In this document: one piece after another, positions 10,024 to 64,000 of the stretch
Layout of the letters: every line of letters starts with the position of its first letter
Numbering within the stretch: position 1 is the first letter of the stretch
NCBI GenBank assembly: GCA_005790545.1
Contig: SXUL01000106.1
Coordinates: 13,975 to 77,974 of the forward strand
DNA: 64,000 nucleotides
Source of the DNA: Planctomycetia bacterium
Lineage (GTDB): Bacteria > Planctomycetota > GCA-002687715
Reading direction: 5' to 3'
Translations under genes and position numbers: made by a program
The notes under the pieces: generated by a model
The model's input: only the letters and a program-made list of their open reading frames with translations
The model's database searches: none
Told to the model about the DNA's origin: nothing

Positions 10024-10063
10024 AGGTCTCTCGGCAAGTGCAGCATGAGGTACTAACGCAATG

Positions 10064-14391: not shown

Positions 14392-14409
14392 GTGTGAGTG
14401 CCGGCGCGG

Positions 14410-14877: not shown

Positions 14878-15019
14878 GGTGACCCCGAGGCGGAGTGCGG
14901 CACCTGCCGCGGGCGCCAGTATGACCGGCACCCGGCCCCATGCACAGGAGCCCTCCGCTTTTGCGAGTGCCGGTGGTCGTTCATCATGGCGCGCCTGCTT
15001 TCTGCGGGCGGAGACTCCC

Positions 15020-16573: not shown

Positions 16574-16638
16574 GTCCGCCGCGTGCGTTGATCCGGAACA
16601 CGGCAGCGACAAGGTCCCGGCTGTAGACTGGCGGGGCC

Positions 16639-44831: not shown

Positions 44832-44907
44832 TCTGGCGTCAGGCCCCTGTCACGCGGGAAATCCTACCCCGGTCTTTGCGCATGTCAGGAAGTTATCCTC
44901 ACCCGCC

Positions 44908-46890: not shown

Positions 46891-46962
46891 AGCGCGCGCT
46901 TTCCCCGGCGTTGCCGCGGGAAAGCCTGCGCAGTATCCTCACACTCCCATTGGAGACGGCAC

Positions 46963-47229
46963 GTGTCCGACGCAACGACGGTCCCCCTGCGCTACACCAA
47001 GACCTTCAAGCTCTACACGGCGGAGTTCGACGCCCGCGTGGTGGAGCATGTGCGCGCGTTTGCGAAGGCTCGCGCCACCATCACCTTCCACGAAGACAAG
47101 TCCATCGTGAAGGTGACGGGCACTCAGCCCGAGATCACCACCCTGCTTGAAGAACTGAAGCAGCGCTTCAACTACATCCCGCCCGAGGATCGCGAAGAAG
47201 CAAAGACCGAGGAACCCGCCGCGGAGTGA
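46963..47229 (+). CDS. hypothetical small protein (88 aa)
   Basis: Compact ORF in an otherwise empty gap upstream of rlmN. No motif recognised. Confidence 0.35.
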   Translation: MSDATTVPLRYTKTFKLYTAEFDARVVEHVRAFAKARATITFHEDKSIVKVTGTQPEITTLLEELKQRFNYIPPEDREEAKTEEPAAE

Positions 47230-47251
47230 TGCGCGGACCGGTGAGGCCCTC

Positions 47252-47563
47252 ATGAGCAACAAACCCATCCTCAGCGTCAAGTGCCCCTGCTGCCAGCACA
47301 TCCTCGAAGTGAGTGTGGAGCAGGAACGGGTCTTGAGTTGGCGGAAGGGCGTACATCTCACGGAGGACCGCCGCGAAGGCGAGGACTCCATGGATGCGGC
47401 CCTGCGCAACAAGCGCGAGGCGGATGCGCGCGTGGTGGACGAGTTCACCAAGGCTGAGGAGAACGTGCGCTCCGCGAAAGAACGCGTGGACGACCTCTTC
47501 CGCGAAGCGACGCGCAAGGCGAAGGAAAAGGGCGAAGACGCCCCGCGGAAAATCTGGGACTGA
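47252..47563 (+). CDS. hypothetical small protein with N-terminal CPCC zinc-ribbon-like motif and charged coiled-coil tail
   Basis: KCPCCQHILEV followed by a Glu/Arg/Lys-rich helix. Ends 4 nt before rlmN. Confidence 0.35.
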   Translation: MSNKPILSVKCPCCQHILEVSVEQERVLSWRKGVHLTEDRREGEDSMDAALRNKREADARVVDEFTKAEENVRSAKERVDDLFREATRKAKEKGEDAPRKIWD

Positions 47564-47567
47564 GCTC

Positions 47568-48647
47568 ATGGCGCAGGTCCCCCTCGCCGGACTGACGCTG
47601 GATGCAGCGCGCCACCATGGCAGCGCCGCAGGGCTCGATGCCTTCGGGTTGGAACTCGTGCCCCGCGCGTGGCGCCAGATCATGCGCGATGGTGCGGCGG
47701 GGCTGCATTTGCTGCAGGACATCAATCCGCGCAAGCGCGCGGCGCTCGCAGCCGTGTTCTCGCATCAGCTTCCGGAAATCGCTTCCACGCACGCGAGCTG
47801 GGACAAGAGCGTGCGCTATGCGCTGCGGCTCCCGGATGGTGCCATCGTTGAGGCGGTGCTCATCCCGCACCACGGCCTGTGGAGTGTGTGTCTCTCGTCG
47901 CAGGCAGGCTGCGCGCTCGCGTGCCAGTTCTGCGCCACTGGTCGCATGGGCTTGCAGCGCAATCTCCTCGCGCATGAGATCACGGGCCAGGTGCTCGCGA
48001 TCCAGCACCACGCGCGCGTGCGCGTGAGCGACCTCGTCTTCATGGGCATGGGCGAACCGCTCCAGAACGAACACGAAGTACTCGCGGCCTGCGCGGTGTT
48101 CGCCGAAAACGAAGGGATGCAAATCGGGCGCCGCCGCATGGTCATCAGCACGGCCGGCATCGTGCCCGCCATCGACCGCTTTGCCGCTGCGGGCCACAAG
48201 ATGAAGCTCGTCTTCAGTCTCGGCTCCGCGGTTCCTGAAAAGCGTGCGCAGCTCATGCCCATCCAGGAACTCTGGCCTTTCGAACGGCTCCTCGCATCCA
48301 TCCGCAACTATGCCGCGACACTGCGCGGGCGGTATGTGACCCTTGAGTACATCGCCATCCGGAACCTCACCCTCGGCGACGACGACATCGAGGCCATCAA
48401 GAAGCACCTCACGGGTTTCAAGTTCATCCTCAATATCATTCCGCTCAATCCGGTGGACCCTCTGCTGGAGGCGCCCACGCGCGAAGAGGTGCTGGCCTGG
48501 TCGAGCCGATTGCGGCCCCTCGGTTTTCCCGTGAAAATCCGACGCTCCTCCGGGCGTGACCAGTTCAGCGCCTGCGGACAGCTGGGGCGCACGCTGCTCT
48601 CAGCGACGGATCTGGCGGAGGCCCCGCGCATGGGCCGCGCGGTGTAG
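47568..48647 (+). CDS. rlmN: 23S rRNA (adenine2503-C2)-methyltransferase, radical SAM
   Basis: RlmN/Cfr family blocks: CLSSQAGCALACQFCATG (CX3CX2C), MGMGEPLQN, ISTAGIVP. Start at the ATG at 47568 (MAQVPLAG). Confidence 0.9.
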   Translation: MAQVPLAGLTLDAARHHGSAAGLDAFGLELVPRAWRQIMRDGAAGLHLLQDINPRKRAALAAVFSHQLPEIASTHASWDKSVRYALRLPDGAIVEAVLIPHHGLWSVCLSSQAGCALACQFCATGRMGLQRNLLAHEITGQVLAIQHHARVRVSDLVFMGMGEPLQNEHEVLAACAVFAENEGMQIGRRRMVISTAGIVPAIDRFAAAGHKMKLVFSLGSAVPEKRAQLMPIQELWPFERLLASIRNYAATLRGRYVTLEYIAIRNLTLGDDDIEAIKKHLTGFKFILNIIPLNPVDPLLEAPTREEVLAWSSRLRPLGFPVKIRRSSGRDQFSACGQLGRTLLSATDLAEAPRMGRAV

Positions 48648-48659
48648 TCTCTGCAGCGC

Positions 48660-49514
48660 ATGCCGCGCGAATGGCTGCCTCGGCAGCTCCTGCTCTTCGG
48701 TGATCTGCACGCCGAGCGCGAGACACCGCTCCTCGCGGACCTTCTCGGAATTCTCCCGGCGGAGGAAATCCACACTGCCAGTGAGAGCGTCGCCGACGCG
48801 CTGGGGCGCGCTCTCGAACACTGCACGACGCGTCACCGCGTGGTGATCAACTACACGAGCAACAGACGCGTGCTGCTTTCCTCCCGCGAGGCCAGCGATG
48901 GCACCGTGCAATTGCGCGCTCACCACGCCTTCCGCAGCGCACCCGACGAGATTGCGGACGCCGCGCTCCGCCTCTACCTCTTCGCTGCGGATCGCAACGA
49001 GCAGCGCCAGCTCGCACGCACCATCATGCGTTGGCACCGCAGAACCGCCGCGCCCCCGAAGAGCCAGGACAATGAAACGCTCACCCACGGGTTGCATCAC
49101 GATCTCCGCGCCACGCTGGAGCGGGTGAACCGCGAGCATTTCGAATCTGCCCTCACGCTCGACATCACCTTCGGAAACCGCGTGGCGCGCACGGTCATGG
49201 GCCGCCACGAGAAACGCGAGCCACGCTCGCTCATCCTCATCAACCCGGTACTCGACCACCCGTGGATTGCCGCGTGGTACCTCGATTTCCTGGTCTTCCA
49301 CGAATGCCTGCACGAAGTGATCCCGCCGCGTCTCGAAGGCTTGCGCGCGGAATTGCATCCCCATGATTTCCGTGCGCGCGAAGAAGCGCACCCGGATGCA
49401 GCGCGCGCCCGCGAATTCGAAGCGTGGGTGCTCGGCCCCGGCTGGCGCCGCCTCAGCGCCGCAGCGCGCGCGTGGCTTCGCAACAAGAGAAACGGCCCGC
49501 CGGGGAAACCCTGA
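48660..49514 (+). CDS. YgjP-like metal-dependent hydrolase (DUF45, HExxH)
   Basis: C-terminal FHECLHEV...H...E motif arrangement typical of the DUF45/WLM-like zinc hydrolase family. Confidence 0.5.
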   Translation: MPREWLPRQLLLFGDLHAERETPLLADLLGILPAEEIHTASESVADALGRALEHCTTRHRVVINYTSNRRVLLSSREASDGTVQLRAHHAFRSAPDEIADAALRLYLFAADRNEQRQLARTIMRWHRRTAAPPKSQDNETLTHGLHHDLRATLERVNREHFESALTLDITFGNRVARTVMGRHEKREPRSLILINPVLDHPWIAAWYLDFLVFHECLHEVIPPRLEGLRAELHPHDFRAREEAHPDAARAREFEAWVLGPGWRRLSAAARAWLRNKRNGPPGKP

Positions 49515-49804
49515 CGAGCCGCTTCTTCACTACGCCTGCGCTGGGTTCCCCGCCAATCGCAGAAGCAGCGAATGTTTTGTCTGCTGGAGCCCGCGAACGC
49601 GTTGCGGCACGCGCGGACATCCAGTCTCCTTCTTCAACACCACATGTCCCGTTTCTTGTCCTGCCGCGCTGGATTTTTCGGAATCGCTGCAAGAAGGTGG
49701 CGAATACGCACGCAGCGCTGCGATGAACCGGGCTCACTTCCGCCAGAGCGCCGACCGCTCACGGCTTGCCCGAGTGCCTTGTTGCGGCTGTGCGCAGGCC
49801 GCCG

Positions 49805-50182
49805 CTAGCGCCGCCACGACCAGAGGATCTCGTCCCCTGGCTTCACGACCCACTGCGCCGCAGGGACTTGAGGGAACACGCCACCAATGGACCACGCCCA
49901 CGATTGATCTTCCCGGGGGTCATTCTTCGTGGACCTCAGCAGCATCTTCGCGAAGAAGTCTCGGCGGCTCTCCGTGGGGCCGTGGCCACGCGGCCAGCGC
50001 AGGAGCCGCCGCGTCGCGTCCTCGACGGTTGCCCCCCGCGGCACGCTCATCCAGCGCGAACTCTCCGGCCATCCCCCACCGGACTCCGGCCAGAGCACCT
50101 GCACTCGCACGGTGATGGAATCCTCGTGGGCGCAGGATGCGAGGGCACAAGCAAAGAGTGCGGTGAGCAGAGCTGTGCGCAT
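49805..50182 (-). CDS. small lipoprotein (lipobox LASC)
   Basis: MRTALLTALFACALASC has a signal peptide with lipobox. 125 aa. Divergent from the M1 peptidase gene. Confidence 0.4.
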   Translation of the reverse strand: MRTALLTALFACALASCAHEDSITVRVQVLWPESGGGWPESSRWMSVPRGATVEDATRRLLRWPRGHGPTESRRDFFAKMLLRSTKNDPREDQSWAWSIGGVFPQVPAAQWVVKPGDEILWSWRR

Positions 50183-50233
50183 GGCGGGAGTCTAAAGGAG
50201 CGCTGCGCGCGAGCGGATAGTCTCTCGCCCGTC

Positions 50234-52174
50234 ATGAACGCACGCCTCACTCTTCTCGTTGCAGCCCTCGCCTTTCTCGTCTGCGCGCCGCTGGTCGCTC
50301 AACGGCGCGACCAAACCGGCGAAGGCGATGCGAACTGGTCCACGCTCTTCCAGGCCCCGGCCATGCGCACCCCGGATCGCATGCACACGGCGAGTGGACG
50401 GCCCGGCCCGGACTATTGGCAGCAAGTAGCGGACTACAAGATCAAGGCGCGCCTCGATCCGGTGGCCAACAAACTCAGCGCGGAACTCACCCTCACCTAC
50501 ACCAACAACTCCCCCGAAGAGCTGTCCTTCCTCTGGTTCCATCTCGAACAGAACATCTTCAAGCAGGACAGCGCGGCTAGGCAACTTGCACTGTCCGGGG
50601 GTGCCAACGGCGAGCGCATCGAGTCGGAAACCAACGGCGTCGAACTCGCCCATGTGAAATGTCGCGGTGAAGACATCGCCTTCACGGTGTACGACACGCT
50701 CATGCGCGTCGAACTCGCGAAGCCCGTGCGCGCGGATGGCGGCGAGGTCGAGATCGACATTCAGTGGTCCATGAGCCTGCCGGAGAAAGCGGCCCTCCGC
50801 ATGGGCCGCACGGAAACCAGCGACGGCCCCATCTTCGCCCTCGCTCAGTGGTTCCCTGCCGTCGCGAAGTTCGATGATGTCCATGGCTGGAACACCCTGC
50901 CCTATCTAGGTTCCGGCGAGTTCTACACCGACTTCGGTGACTATGAGGTGGAGATCACGGTGCCGGCGAATCACATCGTGGCCTCGACCGGCACACTCAT
51001 GAACCCACGCAGCGTGCTCACGAACGCCCAGCGCGAGGCCCTCGCGAAGGCTCGTGAATCGCGCGAAACCGTGATCGTGCGCTCGGCGGATGAGGTGGCT
51101 CTCGGCAAGGGGCGCCCCGAGAGCGCCGATCCAATCACCTGGGAGTTCAGCGCCCGCAACGTGCGCACCTTCGCCTTCACTTCATCGCCGTCCTTCGTCT
51201 GGGATGCCTCCACCACGAATGCCGGCGTGCTCTGTCAGTCCTTCTATCCGCGCTCAGCCTTGCCGCTCTGGGAGGAAGGCACGAAGGACCTCCGCGAATC
51301 CATCGAGCACTTCTCGCGCATGTGGTTCCCGTACCCATGGCCGGTTGCGAACAACACCAACGCCTTCGGTGAGGGTGGCGGCGGCATGGAATACCCGATG
51401 ATCATCTTCAACGGGCGCTGCGATTCGAGCTACGACTTGTTCGCGCTGGTCGCCCACGAGATCGGGCACAACTGGTTCCCCATGGTGGTGAACACCGATG
51501 AACGCCGCCATGTGTGGATGGACGAGGGCTTCAACACCTTTGTCGATTACTACGCCATCGTGGAGCGCTTCGGTTCTGGCGGCAGCTGGTTCGATCGCAA
51601 GGACTGGGTCTCCGCGTGGTCGCGCAACACCCACCCCATGTCCACGCCACCCGATCGCATGCCCGCAGGAACCGTTGGTTTCCTCGGCTACGACAAACCA
51701 GCCTGGATGATGCGCACGCTCCGCGAAGATGTTCTCGGTGCCGAGCGCTTCGATCGCGCCTTCCGCGACTACATTGCGGCTTGGGCCATGAGGTCGCCCA
51801 CACCGGATGACTTCATGCGCTGCATGGAGAACGGTGCCGGCATGGATCTCGGCTGGTTCTGGCAGAGCTGGATCTTCGGCGCCGCCAAGCCGGATGTGGC
51901 GCTCGTGAGCCTCAGCATCGACGAAGGAACTGTTGATGCCGAGATCTCCCATCGCACGCGCTTCGTGCATCCAGTGCCTTGGCGCGCCGCATTGAAGGAT
52001 GGTTCCCGCCGCGAAGGTGTGATTCCCGTGGAGGCCTTCGCGACTCGGCGCTTGGTCCGCTTCAGTTGCGAGGTGCCCGCGGGTTCCCTCCTGAACTTCA
52101 CCCTCGACCCCGAGGCCCGCTGGCCCGATATGGACCGCAAGAACAACTCACAGGCACCGCACCCTGCGAAGTAA
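50234..52174 (+). CDS. M1-family zinc metallopeptidase (HExxH-X18-E), secreted
   Basis: Signal peptide MNARLTLLVAALAFLVCAPLVAQ. HEIGHNWF...WMDEGF gives HEXXH then E after 18 residues, the gluzincin M1 signature. Confidence 0.75.
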   Translation: MNARLTLLVAALAFLVCAPLVAQRRDQTGEGDANWSTLFQAPAMRTPDRMHTASGRPGPDYWQQVADYKIKARLDPVANKLSAELTLTYTNNSPEELSFLWFHLEQNIFKQDSAARQLALSGGANGERIESETNGVELAHVKCRGEDIAFTVYDTLMRVELAKPVRADGGEVEIDIQWSMSLPEKAALRMGRTETSDGPIFALAQWFPAVAKFDDVHGWNTLPYLGSGEFYTDFGDYEVEITVPANHIVASTGTLMNPRSVLTNAQREALAKARESRETVIVRSADEVALGKGRPESADPITWEFSARNVRTFAFTSSPSFVWDASTTNAGVLCQSFYPRSALPLWEEGTKDLRESIEHFSRMWFPYPWPVANNTNAFGEGGGGMEYPMIIFNGRCDSSYDLFALVAHEIGHNWFPMVVNTDERRHVWMDEGFNTFVDYYAIVERFGSGGSWFDRKDWVSAWSRNTHPMSTPPDRMPAGTVGFLGYDKPAWMMRTLREDVLGAERFDRAFRDYIAAWAMRSPTPDDFMRCMENGAGMDLGWFWQSWIFGAAKPDVALVSLSIDEGTVDAEISHRTRFVHPVPWRAALKDGSRREGVIPVEAFATRRLVRFSCEVPAGSLLNFTLDPEARWPDMDRKNNSQAPHPAK

Positions 52175-52258
52175 CCGCAGCGCGTCGGGGCATGTCGAAC
52201 TGACGCACCCGACCCTGCATGAAACAGCAGAGTCGTGCGCCTCAGTCGAGGAGACCGT

Positions 52259-53962
52259 TCACCAGACGATCACCGTGCGTGCGGGCGTGAGGGCGAGGTT
52301 CAGGCCACCAAGAGTCGGCGCCAGTGGGTCCAGGACCGCAGCCTGCGCATGAAAGGTGGCCCCTTGGAATACCGGATTATTGGGGATCGGCAACGGCCAG
52401 ACAACATTGCCGAATATGTCGGTCCCGCCCGATAGATACACGACAGGTGCCGCAAGATCCAAATACACTCCGCACGCGTTCAACGGGCTCGTGCTCAACC
52501 CTGTGGCGATGGCCAGCACAGCAAGAGCGTTGCCGGGAGCACCGAAAACGGCGGCGTTGAAGTTCAGATTGCCGACCTGCGCGTTGGAGGGCCACAGGCC
52601 CGGAGGTGTCGGGCTGCTCCCTGAGCAACCGACTCCATTCAGCGCCTGATTTCTGAAGTAATAGCCGGGACAGTAATACGGCACGCACATCAGGTCCGGG
52701 TCGCTGTCACCGTCGAAGTCGCCGATGACACTCGTCGGGCAAGCCGCAGGGAATGGGCAAGGTGTATGCGATGTGTTCATGCCCGTTTGGTGAAACTGCC
52801 CTCCGGGAAGCCCGAGAGCCATGGTTACGGCAAAATTGCACACGGACGTCGTAAAGAACGGCTCGCGGGCCGGCGCGCGGAGCAAGTCACCCCAACCGTC
52901 GCGATTGAAGTCCGCGGCAAAGGTGGCCACAAAGAGCACGCCTGCAGGCGGCGTCGTGAAAGTCCCTGCAGGAGTCAAAGAGCGCGTGGTGCTGCCGAGA
53001 TGCACCTGCAGAAGCTCGGTGGCGGCACCACCGACGGTCGCGGGTACGCTGCTGACCAGATCCGTGATGCCATCTCCGTTCATGTCGGCGGCACCCACAA
53101 GGCCTGCGGCCATAAATCCCGGGAACACGGGGAATCCCGTAATCGAAGAACCGCTCGGCGCAGTGAATTGCCCGCCACCATTGCCCCAGAGGACGTTCGT
53201 AATCCAGGACGCTCCCACTGAAAAATCCGAGTGCTGGATGGCAAGATCTGTATTGCCGTCACCATCGAAATCTCCCACACGCGGGGCACCACCTATCCCA
53301 TTCACACTCACTCCGCCCCACGCCCACACTTGCACTTGCCATGCCAAGTTCCAGTTCGGGAACTGATTGAGGTAGCAGGATAGAGTTGGCGCATTACCCC
53401 CGCTGCTGGAGTACGCAAGCACATCCGGAAGGCCATCGTTATTGACATCGGCCATGGCAAACCATTGCATGATGACCGCGAGCGTACTCATGCTGATACT
53501 GACTGTGCTCGCTGGAACAAGTGTGCCATTTCCGTTGCCGATACTGAATAATATCATGGACATCGGGTTGCTGGATATGCCAGTACCGTACAAACCATAG
53601 GCCAGATCCTGCAATCCGTCGCCGTTGACATCGGCTGCAATGACGCGTAATGTACCCGCCCCGACCCCCGGCGGATAATAATAGGCATGCGGTATGTACG
53701 GGCCAACGCCGCTGACCGCAGGATCGAGGTCGACTTGGAATAATACCGATCCTGCAACCACATGAATCAAGTCCGCGTAACCGTTTTGGTTGAGATCGGC
53801 CGCCACTGGGAAGTCGCCCGGCCCCGCTCCGGGTGGTGCCATAGGCACATTGAACGCTTCGGTGAGGTATTGCCCCGGCAGGACGCTCACTACCGCCAGC
53901 AACATGAGGGCAACCAACAAGCAGTTCCAAGTGGCCGCGTGCGCGTGTTTGAGGTGGCTCAT
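52259..53962 (-). CDS. FG-GAP repeat (integrin-alpha-like beta-propeller) secreted protein
   Basis: Signal peptide after the MSHLKH start (GAGGAG SD). At least six Dx[DN]xDGxxD calcium-loop repeats (DFDGDGNTDL, DMNGDGITDL, DVNGDGLQDL, ...). Lower GC than flanks. Confidence 0.75.
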   Translation of the reverse strand: MSHLKHAHAATWNCLLVALMLLAVVSVLPGQYLTEAFNVPMAPPGAGPGDFPVAADLNQNGYADLIHVVAGSVLFQVDLDPAVSGVGPYIPHAYYYPPGVGAGTLRVIAADVNGDGLQDLAYGLYGTGISSNPMSMILFSIGNGNGTLVPASTVSISMSTLAVIMQWFAMADVNNDGLPDVLAYSSSGGNAPTLSCYLNQFPNWNLAWQVQVWAWGGVSVNGIGGAPRVGDFDGDGNTDLAIQHSDFSVGASWITNVLWGNGGGQFTAPSGSSITGFPVFPGFMAAGLVGAADMNGDGITDLVSSVPATVGGAATELLQVHLGSTTRSLTPAGTFTTPPAGVLFVATFAADFNRDGWGDLLRAPAREPFFTTSVCNFAVTMALGLPGGQFHQTGMNTSHTPCPFPAACPTSVIGDFDGDSDPDLMCVPYYCPGYYFRNQALNGVGCSGSSPTPPGLWPSNAQVGNLNFNAAVFGAPGNALAVLAIATGLSTSPLNACGVYLDLAAPVVYLSGGTDIFGNVVWPLPIPNNPVFQGATFHAQAAVLDPLAPTLGGLNLALTPARTVIVW

Positions 53963-53972
53963 GTCATGCTCC

Positions 53973-56384
53973 TCAGTACCGGACCTGATTTTCGCCAACG
54001 ACACTCTTGATCGCAGGATTGGCAGGATCAGGGACTTCCAGGGCGAGCACTGTTACGGTTGCCGGCAGCGGCATGGTGGCAGGGATTGCCACGCTGTAGA
54101 CACTCACATTCATGGTGCCTCCTCCGGGGCCAGGGGCAGCTGTCGAAGAGACGAAACTCGTACGAATCTGGGTGCCATTCCATGTGCAAGTCAGCGCTTG
54201 CAGCGGAAATGGGTTGCTGCTTCCCGGGATCCCGGTACCAGCCGCTGCCCGATTGTGACTGACCGTGATCGTCAGGCTGCCGCCCAGCGGAACGGAATTC
54301 CGTGGCGACACCGCAACAAGTGGGCGGCTCACTGGCACAAACTGCGGCCCACTCACACTCAAATTGATCGCATCGGTCAGGCGTATGATGGTGCCGGGTG
54401 CCATGCGCATGCTGCTCACAGGCAACACCGGCGGAGTTGCCAGATTGGTATTCCAGAATCCGGCATATGTGACTTGGGTCGTGAAGGGTAATGGCGGCTG
54501 GTTGAGTACATTGAGTGTGAACTCGTACCACCATTCACCAAACGCGGCAGTCGGAATACCGGTTGTGATTCCGAACCCCAATCGGCCAAGGGGCTCTATG
54601 CACAGTGCGAAGTTCGCGGGACTGGACGCAGGAACCCCATCTATGCGGAACTCTCCCGTCGAGACTGCACCGGCACTCGTGTCGACAACACCTGTCACGC
54701 TTTGCGGCCCGGATCGATGTGTCCCACTGACGGTGCCAACCAACGGAACGCCTGGCACAGGAGGAGTCAACGACACAAGGCTGTCATCCCAAATGACAAA
54801 TACATTGTAACCGAATGAGTTCAGCGGGTGTGCCACGGCACCGACAATGCTGGCTGTTTCGTTGATCAAGAAGTTCCTTGAGCCTGTCATGGCACTGACA
54901 GGGTACAGAGTGGCGAACGCCGCAATGTCGTCGGGTAGCCACGGACTCAGAACGCGATTACGTGCCGGGATTGCAGGCGTGAGCTGGACAGCCGGAGTTG
55001 ACAATGTGGTCGTGAACGCCGCTGTCATGGCCGGCACTTCATTGAAGCTTGGATACCACCCCATGGATAATAAAATGAAAGGCGCAGCTGTCGGGTTCAG
55101 AACCGGGCCACCTGGGTGCAAATTGGTGTGGTCGAGTCCCCAGAAGTGACCAATCTCGTGTGCAAGCCCGCTGCTGGTTTGGGTCACGAGTCCGTTCCAT
55201 GTGGTGGGGCCAGCTGCTGCCTCAAAAATGGTGTCGCACTCCGAGATGATCCCGGTTTGGGGATCCACCATCATGCTGCTCAGCCCACCCACTGCTCCTC
55301 CCAGCATCCCTCCTGCTGTGGGCAAGAAAATGAACTCATTCAAGCCATTGCCCGTTGGTCCACCACAAGCCAGTGACCAAATGAATTGCCCACTAGCGGC
55401 GACAACACCTCCCGCCGGAGCAATGTACGTTGGGGTGGGGTCTTGCGTTGAATACGGATTCGGAGGATAGCCGATGCACACTGTGCTTGGGACATTGGCC
55501 AATTGCAGGATGCTGACGCCGCTCATGATCGCAACGATGTCGTTTGTGAACATTGCCCACGTGTAGGGTGCCCCCAATGCGCCAACAAAAATGTCCGTCC
55601 CAGCTGCAACGCCCGGTGGCGTATTGACGATGTAGGGGACCTGCACGCCTGCGGGCCAATGCCGTGTTACGAGCGAGTATGTTCCGGTTGGGTCAGGATT
55701 GTTGGGGTTCGGTGTACCATCCGCTGCATATGGACTTTGCGCGTACGGCGCCGCGGCGCTGCAGGGAAGGCCTCCCGCACCGGGTGCTCCGCTAGCACTG
55801 GGCGCTGCCATCACATACCAGAGCACATAGGGGTCGTCGCCGTCGCTCGCGGCGCCTGCGCAAAGTTGTTTTTCCGAGTGGCCGCCGCAAGGCTCTACGA
55901 TGTGAGCGAGGCCGGATGGAAGCATGGTGACCGACGCGCCTCGAGAAGTGCGCAGGTGCCTGCCTGCATGAGCCTCAAGGCAACGCAATGCGTGCGAGTT
56001 CGGATCCATGGTGGTCCTGCAGGGAGTGAGAGCGCGAGTACCCGGCGGAAGAAGGATGCGAGCAGCCTCTGGAGACACCGGGGCATCATGGCACACTGGC
56101 GCTGCTGCGTATTCTCCAAAGAACCACCCGTACGACATGATTGTGGCCGCCAGAGCGAGCAGCGTCAGCGCATGCGCGCTGCCGCTATCCGTGAGTCCGT
56201 GAGTCCGTGAGTCCGTGAGTCCATACTTGCCTCCGCTTGCTCTTTGGTGCTTGGTACCGATTTGTATCCTCGCGACGACGTTTGCGCGCGGTGCTGATTT
56301 GCTACAGCAAGGGATGTGCCACAGCGGAATGGCCAGCGCATCGGCTCCGGGGCTGCATTGACGATTCGGCGCAAGCCGCTGCAC
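53973..56384 (-). CDS. matrixin-like (metzincin HExxHxxGxxH) zinc metalloprotease with large N- and C-terminal extensions. Translation start ambiguous; 5' region contains an 8-bp tandem repeat that frameshifts the best start codon.
   Basis: HEIGHFWGLDHT plus downstream DDIAAFATLYP (matrixin C-terminal signature). The ORF frame is open up to 56384. The only SD-preceded ATG (56224) is out of frame by the repeat count. 10-bp gap to the FG-GAP gene. Confidence 0.7.
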   Translation of the reverse strand: MQRLAPNRQCSPGADALAIPLWHIPCCSKSAPRANVVARIQIGTKHQRASGGKYGLTDSRTHGLTDSGSAHALTLLALAATIMSYGWFFGEYAAAPVCHDAPVSPEAARILLPPGTRALTPCRTTMDPNSHALRCLEAHAGRHLRTSRGASVTMLPSGLAHIVEPCGGHSEKQLCAGAASDGDDPYVLWYVMAAPSASGAPGAGGLPCSAAAPYAQSPYAADGTPNPNNPDPTGTYSLVTRHWPAGVQVPYIVNTPPGVAAGTDIFVGALGAPYTWAMFTNDIVAIMSGVSILQLANVPSTVCIGYPPNPYSTQDPTPTYIAPAGGVVAASGQFIWSLACGGPTGNGLNEFIFLPTAGGMLGGAVGGLSSMMVDPQTGIISECDTIFEAAAGPTTWNGLVTQTSSGLAHEIGHFWGLDHTNLHPGGPVLNPTAAPFILLSMGWYPSFNEVPAMTAAFTTTLSTPAVQLTPAIPARNRVLSPWLPDDIAAFATLYPVSAMTGSRNFLINETASIVGAVAHPLNSFGYNVFVIWDDSLVSLTPPVPGVPLVGTVSGTHRSGPQSVTGVVDTSAGAVSTGEFRIDGVPASSPANFALCIEPLGRLGFGITTGIPTAAFGEWWYEFTLNVLNQPPLPFTTQVTYAGFWNTNLATPPVLPVSSMRMAPGTIIRLTDAINLSVSGPQFVPVSRPLVAVSPRNSVPLGGSLTITVSHNRAAAGTGIPGSSNPFPLQALTCTWNGTQIRTSFVSSTAAPGPGGGTMNVSVYSVAIPATMPLPATVTVLALEVPDPANPAIKSVVGENQVRY
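56191..56222. repeat. tandem octanucleotide repeat (gtgagtcc)x4 (GGACTCAC on the coding strand)
   Basis: Read directly: atcc gtgagtcc gtgagtcc gtgagtcc gtgagtcc atac. Confidence 0.9.
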
Positions 56385-56650
56385 GCCAAGGACTAGTGGC
56401 CGTGTTCGTCAACACGCACCGCGCATCGGCCACCGCGCGAGCCGCTTGCAGCTTTGTTTCCGCATCGCACACTGTGTTCCCCTGCCGACACATGGCCTGC
56501 ATAGCGCAACACACACTGCGTCGCCCATTGGCCCGGCTTCGGTCCGCAGAACAGAGGCACCTTGGAGGCATCTTTCGGCGTGCTTTGGCTCTTTGGCGCC
56601 AAGACAGTGCGCCAACGCCAGCGGCTCTGGAGCAGCCGTAATAATCTGGA

Positions 56651-56723
56651 TGGGCGCTGAGGGATTCGAACCCCCGACCCCCTCGGTGTAAGCGAGGTGC
56701 TCTAGCCGCTGAGCCAAGCGCCC
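56651..56723 (-). tRNA. tRNA-Val (anticodon TAC)
   Basis: Minus-strand GGGCGCTTGGCTCAGCGGCTAGAGCACCTCGCTTACACCGAGGGGGTCGGGGGTTCGAATCCCTCAGCGCCCA folds as a cloverleaf. Anticodon loop is CTTACAC. Confidence 0.85.
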
Positions 56724-56878
56724 GGCTGCGAGGAGGATAGCGCGCGGAACGGACCGACGTCTGTCGCGCGCCCGAGGGCATGACCTCGAATCAAGGCTCC
56801 CTCGCCGGGCGCAATCACGCAGAGCAAGGGCGAAGTTCCCCGAGAGATCGCGGCGCGACGGATCTGAAGGATGCGTCA

Positions 56879-56898
56879 CCGCCTACGCGCGTAGGCGG
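56879..56898. promoter_or_regulatory. perfect 20-bp palindrome ccgcctacgcgcgtaggcgg flanked by tcacc direct repeats, in the nar upstream region
   Basis: Read directly. Lies ~160 bp upstream of the narC-like start and 5' of tRNA-Val. Confidence 0.25.
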
Positions 56899-57057
56899 CT
56901 CACCAGAAGCTCACCACATTCAGGCCTGAACCGCGAGGCACACCGGACGCCACAACTTCTTGGCCGGATTGAGCTTCAAACAACAGCTGCAACATGATGC
57001 CTGTTGCGCACGATCAAGCGGCACGCCAGTTGATGAGTGCGGAGTGGAAACCCGCAC

Positions 57058-57951
57058 ATGACGGACTTCAACACGCACCCGCTCCACGCGCTCTTCATGA
57101 CCGCGGCTCTGAGAGTTGCCACCACGCTCGGCGTGGTGCTCGCCCTCGGCGGCTTCATCGCCGCTCAAGACCCGCCCTCGGAAGAGACCATGAACTACTT
57201 CAAGGCCAACTGCGCGAGTTGCCACACCATTGGTGGCGGCCGTCTCACTGGTCCTGACCTGAAGGGCGCCGACACTCGCAAGGACCGCGACTGGCTCATC
57301 AGCTTCGTCGCCGATCCGAAGACGATGATCGACTCCGGCGACGCCTACGCCCGCAAACTGGTGGAAGAAGCCCGCGGCGCGCTCATGCCCAATGTCCCCG
57401 GCATGAACAAGACCCTCGCGGCCAAGCTCGTCGATCTCATCAAGGCCGAGTCAGTGCTGGAGAAGTCGCATTTCATGGGTGTGGTGCTTTCGGACCGCCC
57501 ACTCACGGCCGTGGACGTAGCCCAGGGCAAGGCCCTCTTCACCGGCCTCGCACCCTTCAAGGCCGGCGCCCCTGCGTGCAACTCGTGCCACACAGTGCGC
57601 GCTCTCGAGGGCTTCGGCGGCGGCCGCCTCGGACCAGATCTGACCAGCGCCTTCGCGCGTCTCGAAGGCCGCAAGGCCCTCGGTGCATGGCTTTCGGCAC
57701 CGCCCTCCATCGTGATGCAGCCGGTGTTCAAGCAGCACACTCTGGAGAGCGACGAGATTCTCTCGTTGGTGGCGTTCTTGAAGAGCGAAGCGGAAGGCGG
57801 CGATGCGCCCATGGTGGCGGAACCCTCCCTCGACTTCGTGCTGGCAGGGCTCGGCGCGGCAGCGCTGCTCATTGTCTTGATGGACTTCGCCTGGCGTCGC
57901 CGCTACCGCGCCGTGCGCAGGCCCCTCGTTGCGAAGGACTCGAACTCATGA
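57058..57951 (+). CDS. membrane-anchored diheme c-type cytochrome, NarC-like, first gene of the nitrate reductase operon
   Basis: Signal/TM then two CxxCH (CASCH, CNSCH) and a C-terminal TM helix ([18 protein letters not shown]). Stop overlaps the narG ATG (ATGA). Confidence 0.75.
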
Positions 57952-60900
57952 CGAACGGCAACAATCCCTGGATCCAGGACGGCGTCGAGCCCGAGACCCG
58001 CGCTTGGGAAGAGTTCTACAGAAACCGCTGGCAACACGACAAAGTCGTGCGCTCGACCCACGGTGTGAACTGCACCGGCTCGTGCTCGTGGAACGTGCAC
58101 GTGAAGGACGGCATCGTCACATGGGAAATGCAGGCGCTCGACTATCCGGAGTTGTCGAAGGACCTCCCGGGTTACGAACCTCGCGGTTGCCAGCGCGGCA
58201 TCTCATACTCCTGGTACCTCTACAGCCCGCTGCGCGTGAAGTACCCGTACATGCGCGGCGCATTGCTCGACCTTTGGCGCGAAGCGAAGCGCCAGCACGC
58301 CGACCCGGTGGATGCCTGGACGGCCCTGCAAGGCGACCCCGCGAAGCGTGCGCGCTACCAGAAGGCGCGTGGCAAGGGCGGGCTGCGCCGCGTCACGTGG
58401 GATGTGGCCCTTGAGCTGATCACAGCTTCGATGGTGCACACCATCAAGAAGCACGGGCCCGATCGCATCACGGGCTTCTCCCCCATTCCCGCCATGTCGA
58501 TGCTCTCGTACGCAGCGGGTTCGCGCATGTTGCAGCTCCTCGGAGGAGTGAATCTCTCCTTCTACGACTGGTATTGCGATCTGCCGAGCGCGAGCCCCGA
58601 GTGCTGGGGCGAACAGACGGACGTGAACGAATCCGCGGACTGGTTCAACGCCAAGTTCCTCGCGGTCATGGGTGCGAACCTCAACATGACGCGCACGCCG
58701 GACGTGCACTTCGCCGCGGAAGCGCGCCACAACGGTTCGAAGATGGTGGTGTTCGCACCCGACTTCAACCAGGTCGCGAAGTACGCGGATGAGTGGATCA
58801 GCATCAACGCCGGCCAAGACGGCGCGTGGTGGATGGCGGTCAATCACGTCATCCTGAAGGAGTTCCACCACGAACAGAAGATCAAGAGCTTCCTCGACTA
58901 CACCAAGACCTTCTCCGACGCGCCCTTCCTCGTGGAAGTGGTAAAGGAAGGCACGGGCCTCCGACCGGGCCGACTGCTCCGCGCGGACCGCCTCGCCAAG
59001 TACAAGGGCGAAGAGAACGGCGAGTGGAAGTTCCTCTTCTGGGATACCGCCACCAACGCGCCGAAGATGCCCATGGGCAGCATGGGCCACCGCTGGCAGG
59101 CGAAGAAGGGCCAGTGGAATCTGAAGCTCGAAGACGGCATGGATGGTTCGCCCATCGACCCGACCTTGAGCTTCCTAGACGCTGCGGATGAAACGCCGCT
59201 GGTCGGCTTCGACGACTTCGCCAACGGCACCACCACCACACGCGGCGTGCCCGCGAAGAAGCTCACGACGGTGGATGGATCGAGCGTGCTCGTCACCACG
59301 GTCTATGACCTGCTGATGGCGCAGTACGGCGTGCCGCGCGGGCTGCCGGGTGCGTACCCGAAGAGCTACGACGACGACAGTGTGTATACACCGGCATGGT
59401 CCGAGAAGTACACCGGCATCGGCCGCGAGAACCTCATCCGCTTCGCGCGCGAATGGGCCAGCACCGCTGAAAAGACCGGTGGCAAGTGCACCGTCATCAT
59501 CGGCGCCGGCATCAACCACTGGTACCACGCGAACCTCATGTATCGCGCGGCCATCCACGCGCTCATGTTCTGTGGCTGCGTGGGCAAGAACGGTGGCGGC
59601 CTCGCCCACTACGTAGGCCAGGAAAAACTCGCACCCGGCGATTCGTGGGGTGCCATCGCGCTCGCGAAGGACTGGTACCCGCCGTCGCGTCTGCAGAACG
59701 GTCCGAGCTGGCACTACGTGCACTCGGATCAGTGGCGTTACGAGCGCAGCTTCCGCGACTACCACACCGTGCCCGTCGGCACGCCGGATTCGAGCTTCGC
59801 TGCCGGCCACACCATGGACGCCAACGTGAAGGCCGTCCGCAACGGCTGGCTGCCCTTCTTCCCCGCCTTCGATGAAAGCCCGCTCGACACGGTGAAGAAG
59901 GCCGAGCAGGCGGGCGCCAAGGATGAAGCAGCGATCGTCAAGAACGTGGTGCAGCGCATCAAGTCCGGCGACCTCAAGTTCGGCATCGAGAGGCCGGATG
60001 CAAGCGAGGTCTGGCCGCGGCTGTGGTTCATCTGGCGCGGCAACGCGCTGATGAGTTCCGCCAAGGGCCACGAGTACTTCCTCGAGCACTACCTCGGCAC
60101 GCACACCAACAAGATCTCGAAGGAGCTCGCTGCCGACTTCGTGAAGGAAGTCGAATGGATGGCGACGGCACCGCGCGGAAAGATGGATCTGATCGTCGAT
60201 CTCAACTTCCGCATGGACACGTCCGCGCTCTACTCGGACATCGTGCTGCCCGCGGCCACCTGGTACGAGAAGTGCGACCTCAACTCGACGGACATGCACT
60301 CCTTCATCCACCCGCTCGCACCTGCGGTGCAGCCGTGCTGGGAATCGCGTTCGGACTGGGACATCTTCCGCACCATCTCGAAGGAGTTCTCGAAGCTCGC
60401 GGAGAAGCATCTCCCCGGACGCACGAAGGATCTCGTGCCAACCGTGCTCGCGCACGACAGCAACGCAGAGATCGCGCAACCGCGCATGAAGGATTGGAAG
60501 AAGGGCGAGGTGGAGGCCATTCCCGGCAAGACCATGCCCGGCTTCAAGGTCGTCGAGCGCGACTACCCCGCGCTGCACGACATGTTCTGCTCGCTCGGGC
60601 GCAAGGTGCGCGAGAACGGCCTCGGTGCCCACGGCACGCACTACATGGTCGATGATTTCTACGACCAAATGCTGGCCACCTCGCCCGTCGAGCGCTGGAA
60701 CGGCGCGAGCTACCCCTCCTTGAAGGATGCGAAGGACGCGGCGAATGCCGTGCTCAACCTCGCCACGGTCACGAACGGTGAACTGGCGTGGCGCTCCTAC
60801 AAGAACATGGAAGAGAAGACGGGCCTGAAGCTCACCGACCTCGCGGAACCCACCCGCGCAGTGCGCATGAACTTCAAGGATCTGCAAGCACAGCCTCGCC

Positions 60901-61586
60901 GCTTGATCAACTCGCCCATGTGGTCGGGACTGCTCGAAGGCGGCCGCGCTTACTCGCCCTTCACCTACAACGTCGAACGCATGGTGCCCTGGCGCACGCT
61001 CACGGGCCGCCAGCACTTCTACCTCGATCACGACGGCTACATCGCGTTTGGCGAGCACCTCCCGACCTACAAGCCGAAGCCGCGTCCCGATCAGTACGCA
61101 GACCTCGTGGTCTCGGAGGCTGAAGGCCCGACGCTGCAGCTCAACTACCTCACGCCGCACGGCAAGTGGCACATCCACTCGACCTACGGCGACAACCAGC
61201 GCATGACCACGCTCTCGCGCGGCTGCGAACCGTTCTGGATGAATGACAAGGACGCCGACTCGATCGGCATCAACGACAACGACTGGGTCGAGGTGCACAA
61301 CGACCACGGAGTCGTCGTAACTCGCGCCGCGGTGTCTGCGCGCATCCCGCGCGGCATCTGCATCATCTATCACTCACCCGAGCGCACGTATGGCGTGCCG
61401 AAGTCTCCGCTGCGCGGCAACAAGCGCGGTGGCGGCCACAACAGCCTCACGCGCACGCGCCTGAAACCGAACCTCATGGTCGGTGGCTACGGCCAGTTCA
61501 CCTTCCACTTCAACTACTGGGGACCCATCGGGTGCAACCGGGACACCCATGTACTCGTCCGCAAGCTCCCGCATCTCAGCTGGTGA
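57948..61586 (+). CDS. narG: respiratory nitrate reductase alpha subunit
   Basis: N-terminal H/C-x3-C-x3-C-...-C FS0 motif ([15 protein letters not shown]), ~1212 aa, extensive NarG blocks. Start set at the ATG at 57948 rather than the spurious upstream extension. Confidence 0.92.
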
Positions 61587-61622
61587 TGCACGGCGCACGA
61601 CAGGGAGCCTGAAAGGAACACC

Positions 61623-63110
61623 ATGGACGTCAGATCTCAAATCGCAACGCTCTTCCATCTCGACAAGTGCATCGGCTGCCACACCTGCAGCATCGCGTGC
61701 AAGAACATCTGGACCGACCGTCCAGGCACCGAGTACATGTGGTGGAACAACGTCGAGACCAAGCCCGGCACGGGCTATCCGACGCAGTGGGAAGACCAGG
61801 ACGCCTACAAGGGCGGCTGGAAAGTCGAGAACGGCGATCTCGAACTGCGTTCGACTTCGAAAGCGAAGCTCGTCCCGAACATCTTCCACAACCCGGCCAT
61901 GCCCAGCATGGACGACTACTACGAGCCGTGGACCTACAAGTACGACGAGCTGTTCAACGCTCCCGAAGGTGACGATCAGCCGACGGCCATCCCCGTCTCG
62001 ATGATCACGGGCCAGCAGATCAACATCGAGGCCGGCCCCAACTTCGACGACGACCTCGGTGGCTCCAAGGTCTACGCCGCGAACGACGTGAATCTGCGGG
62101 AGCTCGATCCGATGCTCCGCGCGCAGATGCTCGAAATCGAGCGCCTCGCGTTCTTCTACCTGCCGCGCATCTGCAACCACTGTCTCAATCCAGGTTGCGT
62201 CGCGGCCTGTCCCTCCGGCGCGCTCTACAAGCGCGGCGAGGACGGCATCGTGCTCTTGAACCAGGAGCGTTGCCGTGCGTGGCGCGCGTGCATCGCCGCC
62301 TGCCCCTACAAGAAGACCTACTACAACTGGTCCACGGGCAAGTCGGAGAAGTGCATCCTCTGCTTCCCGCGCCTCGAAACGGGCCAAGCACCCGCGTGCT
62401 TCCACTCCTGCGTCGGCCGCATCCGCTATCTCGGCAACGTGCTCTATGACGCGGACCGCATCAAGGATGCCGCGCTCAAGACCGACCTCGAACTCGTGGA
62501 TGCGCAGCGCGATCTCATCCTCGACCCGAACGATCCGGCAGTGATCGCGGGTGCGCGCGCCTCGGGCGTGCCTGAAGCCGTCATCGAATCGGCACAGAAG
62601 TCGCCGGTCTGGCGCTTCGTGAAGGAATGGAAGATGGCGCTTCCGCTCCACGTTGAGTTCCGCACCTTCCCGATGCTCTTCTATGTGCCCCCGTTGCTGC
62701 CGGTGATGTCGGTCGCACGCGGTGGCGTGGTGACCAGCGACGTGGATGCCATGTTCGCGGATATCGAGAAGGCGCGAGCGCCGATCTCGTATCTCGGCAA
62801 GCTCTTCGCCGCCGGGAATGACGGCAAGGTGCGCTACGCACTGCGGAAGCAGATGGCGGTGCGCCTGTGGCGTCGCCACGTCACGGTCGGCGACATCTCG
62901 CTCGAAGAAGCGACGCGCGCATTGCGCGAAGCGGAATGCACGCCCGAACAGGCGGACGCCATCTTCAAGCTCACAGCCCTCGCTTCCATCGACGAGCGCG
63001 TGGTCGTCCCGCCCATGCAACGCGAAATGGCCATCGAGATGCTCGAAGACCCGCACGAGCACCGCGCGGGCACCGGGTTCGGCACACGCACGCCGCCCAT
63101 GCGAGTCTGA
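61623..63110 (+). CDS. narH: respiratory nitrate reductase beta subunit
   Basis: Four FeS-cluster Cys groups (CIGCHTCSIACKN, CNHCLNPGCVAAC, CRAWRACIAAC, CILCFPR...C). 495 aa. Confidence 0.92.
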   Translation: MDVRSQIATLFHLDKCIGCHTCSIACKNIWTDRPGTEYMWWNNVETKPGTGYPTQWEDQDAYKGGWKVENGDLELRSTSKAKLVPNIFHNPAMPSMDDYYEPWTYKYDELFNAPEGDDQPTAIPVSMITGQQINIEAGPNFDDDLGGSKVYAANDVNLRELDPMLRAQMLEIERLAFFYLPRICNHCLNPGCVAACPSGALYKRGEDGIVLLNQERCRAWRACIAACPYKKTYYNWSTGKSEKCILCFPRLETGQAPACFHSCVGRIRYLGNVLYDADRIKDAALKTDLELVDAQRDLILDPNDPAVIAGARASGVPEAVIESAQKSPVWRFVKEWKMALPLHVEFRTFPMLFYVPPLLPVMSVARGGVVTSDVDAMFADIEKARAPISYLGKLFAAGNDGKVRYALRKQMAVRLWRRHVTVGDISLEEATRALREAECTPEQADAIFKLTALASIDERVVVPPMQREMAIEMLEDPHEHRAGTGFGTRTPPMRV

Positions 63111-63112
63111 CC

Positions 63113-63661
63113 ATGGTTGCCAACCTCGACACACACGAACGCGCCGCCGGCCTCCTCGGCTACCCCTTGGATGCCGATGGCCGCGCGCTCGCGCGCGAAG
63201 CGGAACTCCTCGCCGAGGCCTTGCCAGAGATGCGCGATGAGCTCGCACGTTTCGCGGACAAGGTGCGCGATGCCGAGCCAGGCACCATCGAGGAGTTCTA
63301 CACCAGCGCGTTCGACAACACGCCGGACCGCGCGCTTGAACTCGGCTGGCATGCTTTCGGCGAGACCTACTCGCGCGGAGCATTCCTCGCCTCCATGCGC
63401 GCGCGCATGCGCGATGCAGGTGTCGTGGAGTGCACGGAACTTCCCGATCACATCACGCATGTACTGCGGCTCTTGCCGCATCTCGATCCGGCGCTCGCCG
63501 GAGCCCTCGCTGAGGGCGTGCTCGTTGCGGCCACGGACAAGGCCATCAAGGGTTTCGCGGATGGTGCACACCCGTGGCTCGCGCCGCTCAAGGCAGCGCG
63601 CGCGGTGATTGCATCGCACGTCGCCACGGCGACGCGGATGAAGGAGCAGGTCCATGAATGA
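63113..63661 (+). CDS. narJ: nitrate reductase molybdenum cofactor assembly chaperone
   Basis: ~182 aa acidic protein between narH and narI with NarJ/TorD-family features. Start at the ATG at 63113, 2 nt after the narH stop. Confidence 0.75.
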   Translation: MVANLDTHERAAGLLGYPLDADGRALAREAELLAEALPEMRDELARFADKVRDAEPGTIEEFYTSAFDNTPDRALELGWHAFGETYSRGAFLASMRARMRDAGVVECTELPDHITHVLRLLPHLDPALAGALAEGVLVAATDKAIKGFADGAHPWLAPLKAARAVIASHVATATRMKEQVHE

Positions 63662-64000
63662 CTTCCTCTTGTTTGCGGCGCTGCCCTACGCGGCGCTCCT
63701 CGTGTTCTTCCTCGTGACCATCCAGCGCTATCGCCAGCGCAAGTTCACCTACTCCGCGCTCTCGAGCCAGTTCCTCGAGAACAAGGTGCACTTCTGGGGC
63801 TCGGTGCCGTTCCACTACGGCATTCTCGCGGTGCTTTTCCTGCACTTTCTCTTCATCGTGATGCCGAAGACGATTCTCGCGTGGAACGCGGCGCCGCTGC
63901 GGCTCTGGGCTCTTGAAGCCACGGGCCTCGCGTTCGCGGTTCTCGCACTCACGGGTCTCGTCAACACGATCATGCGCCGCTGGACGTTCGCGAAAGCGCG
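63654..64000 (+). CDS. narI: respiratory nitrate reductase gamma subunit, N-terminal part (runs off the window end)
   Basis: ATG at 63654 overlaps the narJ stop (ATGA). Translation MNDFLLFAALPYAALLVFFLVTIQRYRQRKFTYSALSSQFLENKVHFWGSVPFHYG matches the NarI heme-b membrane subunit N-terminus. Not in the ORF track because there is no stop within the window. Confidence 0.75.
   Translation, partial: MNDFLLFAALPYAALLVFFLVTIQRYRQRKFTYSALSSQFLENKVHFWGSVPFHYGILAVLFLHFLFIVMPKTILAWNAAPLRLWALEATGLAFAVLALTGLVNTIMRRWTFAKA

Follow-up and report, generated by a model that had tools for sequence, protein, structure and literature searches.

A protease and FG-GAP propeller gene pair inserted beside tRNA-Val in a planctomycete genome, with an octanucleotide array at the probable start codon of the protease

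The two-gene islet described here lies in a 64,000-nucleotide stretch of DNA (the window) from a Planctomycetia bacterium (GenBank assembly GCA_005790545.1, contig SXUL01000106.1, positions 13,975 to 77,974 of the forward strand). A preliminary description had seen in it an old or decayed genomic island of lower GC content on the 3' side of a tRNA-Val gene. Positions below are those of the window, and L and P numbers denote the loci and proteins with which it was compared. The inserted interval (52175..56650, 4476 bp), delimited by collinearity with locus L068 and by GC content, extends from the stop codon of an M1-family peptidase gene (50234..52174, plus strand), which forms the left flank and is convergent with the cassette, to tRNA-Val(UAC) (56651..56723, minus strand; ARAGORN and Rfam), whose 3' end (56651) faces and abuts the end of the insert (56650). 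Its sole genes are co-oriented on the minus strand: a metzincin-like protease gene, whose longest open reading frame (ORF) has 803 codons (53973..56384) with a conserved body from about 56186 downward, and a gene for an FG-GAP, integrin-alpha-like beta-propeller of 567 amino acids (52259..53962; Pfam and gene call). The gene calls leave an operon junction of 10 nt between them (53963..53972, minus strand), in agreement with the 10-bp gap described earlier, and the longest protease ORF starts 266 bp from the tRNA, close to the ~270 bp given before. Further in, 426 bp from the tRNA, lies a candidate native start codon, an ATG at 56222..56224 (minus strand) that corresponds to the in-frame ATG of the orthologues P0006 and P0162. 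A Shine-Dalgarno (SD) sequence, GGAGG, stands 5 nt 5' of this ATG (56230..56234, minus strand), and a tandem octanucleotide array overlaps it (56188..56222, minus strand; (GGACTCAC)x4 plus 3 nt on the coding strand), found with Tandem Repeats Finder (TRF) and matched by orthologous arrays. The remaining DNA up to the tRNA is a non-coding leader or promoter region of the cassette (56225..56650, minus strand), for which there is no DNA-level alignment even with the Logan contig L079. Nothing except the tRNA scored above threshold in an Rfam scan of 51.9-57.2 kb; a narK-RNA at 56272-56320 was dismissed as sub-threshold (22 bits against 43.2, E 0.58), and scans for sigma-70 promoters and terminators gave nothing interpretable for this phylum.

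The protease carries the sequence HEIGHFWGLDH (ORF residues 409-419; 55128..55160, minus strand), an instance of the zinc-binding motif HExxHxxGxxH in which the three histidines and the glycine are invariant across 45 family members. The glutamate is conserved in at least 90% of the sequences of that alignment and is invariant in a 12-member alignment. A methionine, M453 in 'PAMT' (55026..55028, minus strand), is kept in at least 90% of members 34 residues past the third histidine and is a candidate for the Met-turn; the window protease fits the metzincin catalytic fold. Searches of the window protein returned no Pfam family at E <= 0.01, with a score below the Pfam M10 threshold, and no NCBIfam family; nine other family members likewise had no Pfam family at E <= 0.001, and the fusion protein P0019 matched FG-GAP domains only. 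At greater distance, the proteins reached by the family profile are those with strong PF00413 matches (Pfam M10 matrixins), and hhalign against the M10 protein P0097 gave 96.5% probability (E 8.7e-10) over the strands, the zinc helix and the DDIxGxxxLYP helix. Sequence matches in the PDB (karilysin, MMP-13) span the motif only (E 0.2-2). On this evidence the protease is classed as a matrixin-type metzincin outside Pfam M10, so that the matrixin-like identity proposed earlier stands on the motif and on remote M10 homology, and the Pfam match is missing.

Ahead of the catalytic domain lies a conserved region rich in cysteine and histidine (C122, C135, H139, H143, H161, C166); the cysteine switch PRCGxPD was not found on reading the window protein sequence. 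Upstream of this region is a hydrophobic N-terminal helix (ORF residues 72-84; AHALTLLALAATIMSYGWFF, 56118..56177, minus strand), a signal anchor or signal peptide that is conserved in orthologues. The public gene model P0001 (678 amino acids, start at 56009) lacks the membrane anchor and part of the Cys/His-rich region and is thus N-terminally truncated, since these conserved elements lie upstream of its start. The orthologues P0003, P0008 and P0160 are likewise mis-started, because the array breaks the frame. The predicted layout starts with a short tail and a single hydrophobic helix at the N-terminus, goes on with the Cys/His-rich pro-region and a catalytic domain like that of the matrix metalloproteinases (MMPs), and ends in C-terminal immunoglobulin (Ig)-like domains; the protein would be either membrane-anchored or secreted. 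It belongs to a family for which Pfam has no model, and it extends the matrixin-like metzincins to a membrane-anchored, Ig-bearing form with an FG-GAP partner.

The FG-GAP identity of that partner, as first proposed, is confirmed by Pfam matches well above threshold (PF13517, 97 bits with a cut-off of 26.9; PF01839, 70.3 bits with a cut-off of 22.1). Its N-terminus has a hydrophobic, signal-like segment, and its best matches in the PDB, which are weak, are integrin alpha-V propellers. The second product would accordingly be a secreted beta-propeller of the seven-blade type. Both proteins have export signals and extracellular-type domains, as expected of the secreted proteins that had been described. 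The end of the propeller gene is unusually alike between some cassettes: window 52223-52399, the last ~140 nt of the gene and 36 nt past its stop, is 80% identical as DNA to L003:13747-13923, and the proteins of these two cassettes overall are just ~34% identical. The ~40 C-terminal residues are strongly conserved, and the peptide ...LNLALTPARTVIVW is common to the closer cassettes but different in L075 and L081. The stretch may act in protein sorting or mark a tract of recombination. The DNA conserved past the FG-GAP stop between the window and L079 was considered as a cassette end and rejected, as it is the 3' end of the convergent M1 gene.

The islet stands out by composition. GC content is 64.4% over the whole window; it falls to 0.570-0.603 in 1-kb windows at 52.5-56 kb, against 0.62-0.68 in nearly all others. 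The 4476 bp of the interval have a GC content of 0.598 versus 0.648 for the remainder of the window, a value below those of all 506 other windows of the same length (minimum 0.623). Counted in lines of 60 nt, the islet ranges from 43 to 78% with a mean of 59.5%, and the M1 and narG flanks have a mean of 64.0%; the contrast reported before was therefore right in direction and overstated in amplitude, the flanks having been put at ~68%. The GC content at third codon positions (GC3) is 0.672 for the FG-GAP gene (z = -2.45) and 0.619 for the metzincin-like gene (z = -3.59), when the 32 other genes of the window have a mean of 0.784 (standard deviation 0.046, minimum 0.682). Codon adaptation to the window's own usage is likewise lowest in the islet genes (0.51 and 0.49, mean 0.68), so that these measures single out exactly the two genes. 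The M1-peptidase gene on the left flank is of native composition (GC3 0.78-0.80). Past tRNA-Val, the nar genes have a native-like, high GC3 of 0.83-0.87. The other low-GC spots of the window are at 501-1500 and at 9160-10101 (minus strand); the latter is a gene of 313 amino acids with GC 0.594, GC3 0.70 and codon adaptation 0.55, the most atypical after the islet genes.

Comparison with related genomes shows the interval to be inserted, since a relative has the empty site. With the M1 peptidase as query, 65 loci were collected from GTDB species representatives, nearly all of them Phycisphaerae or Planctomycetota metagenome-assembled genomes (MAGs) at 40-47% identity. The closest relative among these representatives, L068, is at 64% and is collinear with the window for more than 8 kb upstream (44043-52159), through genes for a glycogen-debranching enzyme (GDE), a radical-SAM protein, a protein of 284 amino acids and the M1 peptidase. 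From window position 52159 the match jumps straight to 56650-56735: in L068 the M1 stop is followed after 27 bp by a tRNA-Val(tac) orthologous to that of the window, 94% identical and in the same orientation, and the cassette is absent. L068 is thus an empty site for the cassette, and the M1 gene and tRNA-Val are adjacent outside the window, as the preliminary description had suggested checking. L068 is labelled 'Singulisphaera sp. GP187' (Isosphaerales), unlike the other M1 relatives, nearly all of which are Phycisphaerae MAGs, and the label or the bin may be wrong. Synteny with L068 stops on the 5' side of tRNA-Val as well (window 56724-64000 versus L068:12066-21899), which places a breakpoint on both sides; there the window has cytochrome c and narGHJI genes, with two major facilitator superfamily (NarK-like) genes past the window end, and the genes of L068 are unrelated.

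A second occupied lineage is represented by L079, which starts with 39 nt of tRNA-Val, matching the 3' half of the window gene at 100% identity, continues with the cassette (protease 75% and propeller 65% identical) and then has the convergent M1 gene, 76% identical. Since the cassette occupies the tRNA-Val/M1 site in both, it was present before the lineages split and the islet is old, in keeping with the 'old or decayed' qualifier given to it earlier.

The same interval is occupied in other ways elsewhere. In a distant clade of Phycisphaerales the M1 gene is followed by a convergent tRNA-Val(GAC) (L031, L039, L035, L034, L037 and L032), with gaps of 115 bp (L031), 725, 858, 1988, 4865 (L037) and 7172 bp (L032). 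GC content in the gap is 0.50-0.53 in L039, L035, L037 and L032, in loci of 0.57-0.65, and 0.62 versus 0.65 in L034. In L037 (interval at 11848-16788) and L032 (11851-19098) tyrosine integrases adjoin the tRNA, and the islands, 3.3 and 4.5 kb long, have as their boundaries attachment (att) repeats, exact 16-nt copies of the tRNA 3' end; these two loci served as positive controls, for an intact island and for the att-repeat search. A SMODS (CBASS-like) gene is part of the L032 island, an FG-GAP_2 protein is encoded in L037 between the M1 gene and the distal att, and L034 has an ankyrin-repeat protein of 612 amino acids. The M1/tRNA-Val interval is a recurrent integration hotspot in this group. 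Integrase islands in the equivalent interval make an integrase origin of the window islet plausible, in which case the ~4.5 kb that lie between M1 and tRNA-Val(UAC) in this host of Phycisphaerae type would have lost a tyrosine integrase and an att repeat after integrating.

Several results weigh against this history. Probes of 22 and 16 nt from the tRNA-Val 3' end, with up to 3 mismatches, found no second copy in the window; a search for direct and inverted repeats flanking the islet (51.5-57.5 kb) gave nothing credible; tblastn with the L037 and L032 integrases gave only E >= 0.5 in the window; and the window has no other mobility gene. The insertion mechanism is consequently unproven. The tRNA-Val of the hotspot in the distant clade is also a different isoacceptor, GAC rather than the UAC of the window. 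The preliminary description had itself noted that the islet holds two genes and no integrase, and the direct repeat that it proposed to look for is missing from the window, an absence that fits an old or decayed element.

The cassette is found well beyond this site. A word-indexed search with the protease ORF retrieved 16 proteins from 5.8 billion, and a 12-member profile, run against 1.8 billion cluster representatives, reached 66 clusters at E < 1e-30 and 282 at E < 1e-3. Among loci with readable DNA, an FG-GAP gene follows the protease gene in the window (with its replicate L001), L002, L003/4, L070, L071, L075, L076, L078, L079, L080 and L081, across at least 10 different contexts and at 31-75% identity. 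The gap of 1-10 nt is kept in intact orthologous cassettes and has grown to 217 nt with a short intervening ORF in the decayed copy L070. Flanking genes differ at every cassette locus except L079, which is at the window's site, and L080, whose flanks are off the contig. In L003 an IS3-type transposase lies directly upstream.

The evidence can also be read without any acquisition, both genes being ancestral residents that were deleted in L068 and whose low GC3 comes from weak expression or relaxed selection. The absence of att repeats and integrase suits that account, as does the fact that L079, whose proteins have diverged by ~25%, still has the cassette at this site with a GC3 of 0.64-0.66; low GC3 moreover appears intrinsic to the cassette and independent of the host. 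Against it are the clean 27-bp junction in L068, a tRNA-Val just 115 bp from M1 also in the more distant L031, the rarity of the cassette and its many unrelated contexts, the transposase beside one copy, and the integrase islands that the same interval takes in relatives. Ancestral residence is for these reasons improbable, and the islet was very probably acquired horizontally at a tRNA-Val hotspot. The island interpretation of the preliminary description is supported, the comparisons of composition, repeats and synteny that it called for having turned out favourable or neutral. The islet is ordinary as such but unusually well documented, by an empty site, a second occupied lineage and intact integrase islands elsewhere, and it offers a clean example of the way in which tRNA-flank hotspots in Planctomycetota gain and then lose mobility genes.

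Conserved adjacency is one of two indications that the protease and the propeller cooperate. The other is P0019 (1353 amino acids), a natural fusion of a metzincin-like part (residues 53-619) and FG-GAP repeats from ~757. An exception to the pairing is a lone paralogue, 34% identical, in L072-74. Assembly GCA_005799575.1 has three family members, the paired cassette L002 and two 34%-identical paralogues on another contig (L072:2-1441 and 5761-8007), which have no adjacent FG-GAP gene and stand beside an RCC1-repeat protein. Selection has kept the coding sequences: the ratio of nonsynonymous to synonymous substitution rates (dN/dS) between cassettes is 0.11-0.27, and the ORFs are intact in the five that were tested (window, L079, L002, L003 and L076). 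We hold with good confidence that the metzincin protease and the propeller are a functional pair, and on account of the adjacency and the fusion they most likely cooperate at the cell surface, where the propeller would be the binding or recognition subunit for the protease.

A different function would follow if the islet were a remnant of a prophage or a defence island and its proteins had phage or anti-phage roles. The location at a tRNA fits such an origin, and the L032 island, of the neighbouring type, has its SMODS gene. A scan of 2.9 million viral contigs with the family alignment nevertheless found no relative, PADLOC matched neither islet protein, and export signals and extracellular-type domains occur in both, so that this origin is very improbable and a surface-acting pair is to be preferred.

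A feature that the preliminary description did not mention is the array at the start of the protease gene. It is the best tandem repeat of the window, perfect over 4.4 copies with a TRF score of 70 (the next scores 49). The coding strand reads GGAGG-caagt-ATGGACTCACGGACTCACGGACTCACGGACTCACGGAT, that is, the SD sequence, five bases, the ATG and four octamers, the array beginning 2 nt into the SD-preceded ATG. The unit of 8 nt is not divisible by three. In the window the ATG is +1 out of frame with the protease ORF and reads MDSRTHGLTDSRIAAARMR before a stop. One unit fewer would give MDSRTHGLTDSGSAHALTLLALAATIMSYGW..., in register residue for residue with P0006, and P0006 and P0162 begin MDSRTHGLTGSG... 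from the orthologous in-frame ATG (L076/77).

Arrays follow directly after an SD sequence and ATG in the window and L001, L002, L003/4, L070, L076/77 and L078, and an SD-like sequence is at the equivalent position in L002, L003, L070, L076 and L078. Four variants of the unit occur among the orthologues, in 3-5 copies. The unit GGACTCAC is present in 3 copies both in L002, out of frame, and in L076/77, in frame; GGTCTCAC in 5 copies in L070, out of frame; TCAAGGAC in 3.9 copies in L003/4 and 4.25 copies in L078, both out of frame; and TCGAACCC in 3.4 copies in L079, where the array lies 24 nt after a GTG start and is in frame. The single-base differences between units are present in every copy of an array, which indicates repeated contraction and expansion. 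The more distant members L071, L072, L075 and L081 have no array. In L080 the contig starts inside one (L080:1-30, ACTCAAGG x3.75), an assembly break that could reflect copy-number heterogeneity in the reads.

Alleles one unit apart were found in two lineages. P0161 and P0008, the L003 protein, are identical over all 705 shared residues with 4.9 and 3.9 units, and the N-terminus of P0161, ...KCFKDSRTQGLKDSRRNG, requires exactly one extra octamer. P0163 and P0009 (L078) share 754 identical residues with 5 and 4 units. The start of P0161 is a GTG, preceded in L003 DNA by GAGGAG-N6, so that two of the three frames may be productive in the L003 lineage; such a second start in another frame recalls the multi-ATG lic genes. 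Programmed frameshifting, suggested by the frame offset shared by the 'off' alleles, was rejected because P0161 and P0163 are in the other frame.

It is likely that the array is a slipped-strand phase switch. Gain or loss of an octamer by replication slippage immediately after the SD-ATG would shift the reading frame and gate expression. With the four units of the window, the frame of the ATG stops after 19 codons and the anchored protease would not be made; the propeller would probably be missing too, whether by polarity or because translational coupling is lost. The frame would be open again with three or six units. The allele of this genome is probably off, a call that we hold somewhat less firmly than the switch itself and that is not certain because some out-of-frame alleles are in frame with other upstream starts. 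Reversible switching, its rate and a polar effect on the propeller gene are features that we infer.

Part of the evidence weighs against a switch. The ATG is out of frame in seven of nine alleles; in the window the ORF remains open as far as the GTG at 56384, and the L003 lineage has its upstream SD-GTG. Copy number is identical across independent assemblies (window = L001; L002 = L082 = L085; L003 = L004; L076 = L077), and the one-unit differences of P0161 and P0163 come from protein N-termini rather than from DNA. When metagenomes were scanned for an ATG with two octamers, the matches were more copies of the L002 allele together with two unrelated sequences, and none was a new copy-number variant. 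Short arrays of 3-5 units may also make for slow switching.

These points can be gathered into an account in which the array lies in an N-terminal tail that the protein can do without and is no more than an unstable repeat, and the out-of-frame alleles are decaying or are translated from other starts, such as the GTG at 56384. Most alleles being out of frame with the SD-ATG, and the replicate assemblies of four lineages being invariant, would then need no switch; P0009, P0161 and P0163 are indeed called from upstream starts. Decay does occur: in the cassette at L070:9361-13208 the array of five units is out of frame, the anchor region is interrupted by a TGA in frame (ML*GW) and the protease gene is called in pieces. 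That, however, is the look of a truly dead allele. Upstream of the anchor, the out-of-frame alleles of L002 and L003 offer no start in the right frame, but their ORFs of ~700 codons are intact, with dN/dS of 0.16-0.17. Selection at the protein level would not yield a perfect 8-nt period in four unit variants at the same position, and alleles that differ by one unit alone occur in two lineages. The GTG at 56384, finally, has no SD sequence, whereas the ATG has GGAGG-N5. A dispensable, non-switching tail is on balance doubtful, and a slippage switch is the better reading of the array. For the explanation as a whole, an acquired islet with a protease/propeller operon whose expression is gated by the repeat, our confidence is reasonably firm.

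One property of the cassette does not follow from simple foreign origin. In eleven loci its GC content is 0.57-0.61 and its GC3 0.62-0.70, with neighbours at a GC3 of 0.70-0.95, and L081 is the sole approach to host composition. Low GC3 thus persists whatever the host, and the cassette shows no amelioration since the window and L079 lineages split, which tells against a simple model of foreign DNA; given the long residence in L079, recency is not the whole explanation. The best guess is that GC3 is low because selection is relaxed, or biased gene conversion reduced, at an accessory and often silent locus. This bears on whether selection or biased gene conversion upholds GC3 in GC-rich bacteria.

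What is new in this analysis is the module and its probable repeat switch. To our knowledge, slippage on/off switches are hardly known outside host-associated bacteria, and our literature searches found no report of such contingency loci in Planctomycetota. It is an evenly balanced proposition that this is the first contingency locus in that phylum, a horizontally spread surface module toggled by octanucleotide slippage, with three states in some lineages and with long off periods that explain its low GC3. If so, free-living environmental bacteria would share the bet-hedging device of host-adapted pathogens, presumably with a switch directed against phage or grazers or serving a costly surface activity. 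Should the array be a genuine phase switch, the range of contingency loci would widen to a phylum that is free-living and rich in GC.

Several known systems resemble parts of the locus. Like tRNA-linked integrative islands, the islet sits at a tRNA 3' end, has deviant composition, carries accessory genes and is missing from a close relative; it differs from them in having only two genes in 4.5 kb, with neither integrase nor att direct repeat, and in being old (common to L079) with a composition that does not converge on that of the host. Compared with the matrixins (MEROPS M10A, PF00413; karilysin and the vertebrate MMPs), the protease has a far longer insert between the third histidine and the methionine (34 residues), a different, Cys/His-rich N-terminal region without PRCGxPD, an N-terminal anchor, C-terminal Ig-like domains instead of hemopexin and an obligate FG-GAP partner gene, and it scores below the threshold of the Pfam M10 model. 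From EcxA, the toxilysin that forms the A subunit of an AB5 toxin (PDB 4l6t), it differs by an identity of just 12%, by the lack of a B-subunit gene and by its other domains and partner. The propeller shares with the FG-GAP/VCBS propellers of integrin alpha type its FG-GAP and FG-GAP_3 repeats and Ca-loop-like DxDxDG motifs, but it is a bacterial protein of 567 amino acids whose conserved C-terminal domain, peculiar to it, ends in ...TVIVW, and the gene with which its own is coupled encodes a protease, not an integrin beta subunit. Octanucleotide simple sequence repeats (SSRs) are among the candidate phase-variation tracts of H. influenzae (PMC2651432). The closest parallel to the array is with the SSR contingency loci of Haemophilus, Neisseria and Campylobacter, which likewise have a non-triplet repeat just past the start codon of a surface protein, in- and out-of-frame alleles, and one-unit differences between otherwise identical alleles; the islet differs from them in its free-living, high-GC planctomycete host and in its short arrays (3-5 units) of a GC-rich 8-nt unit.

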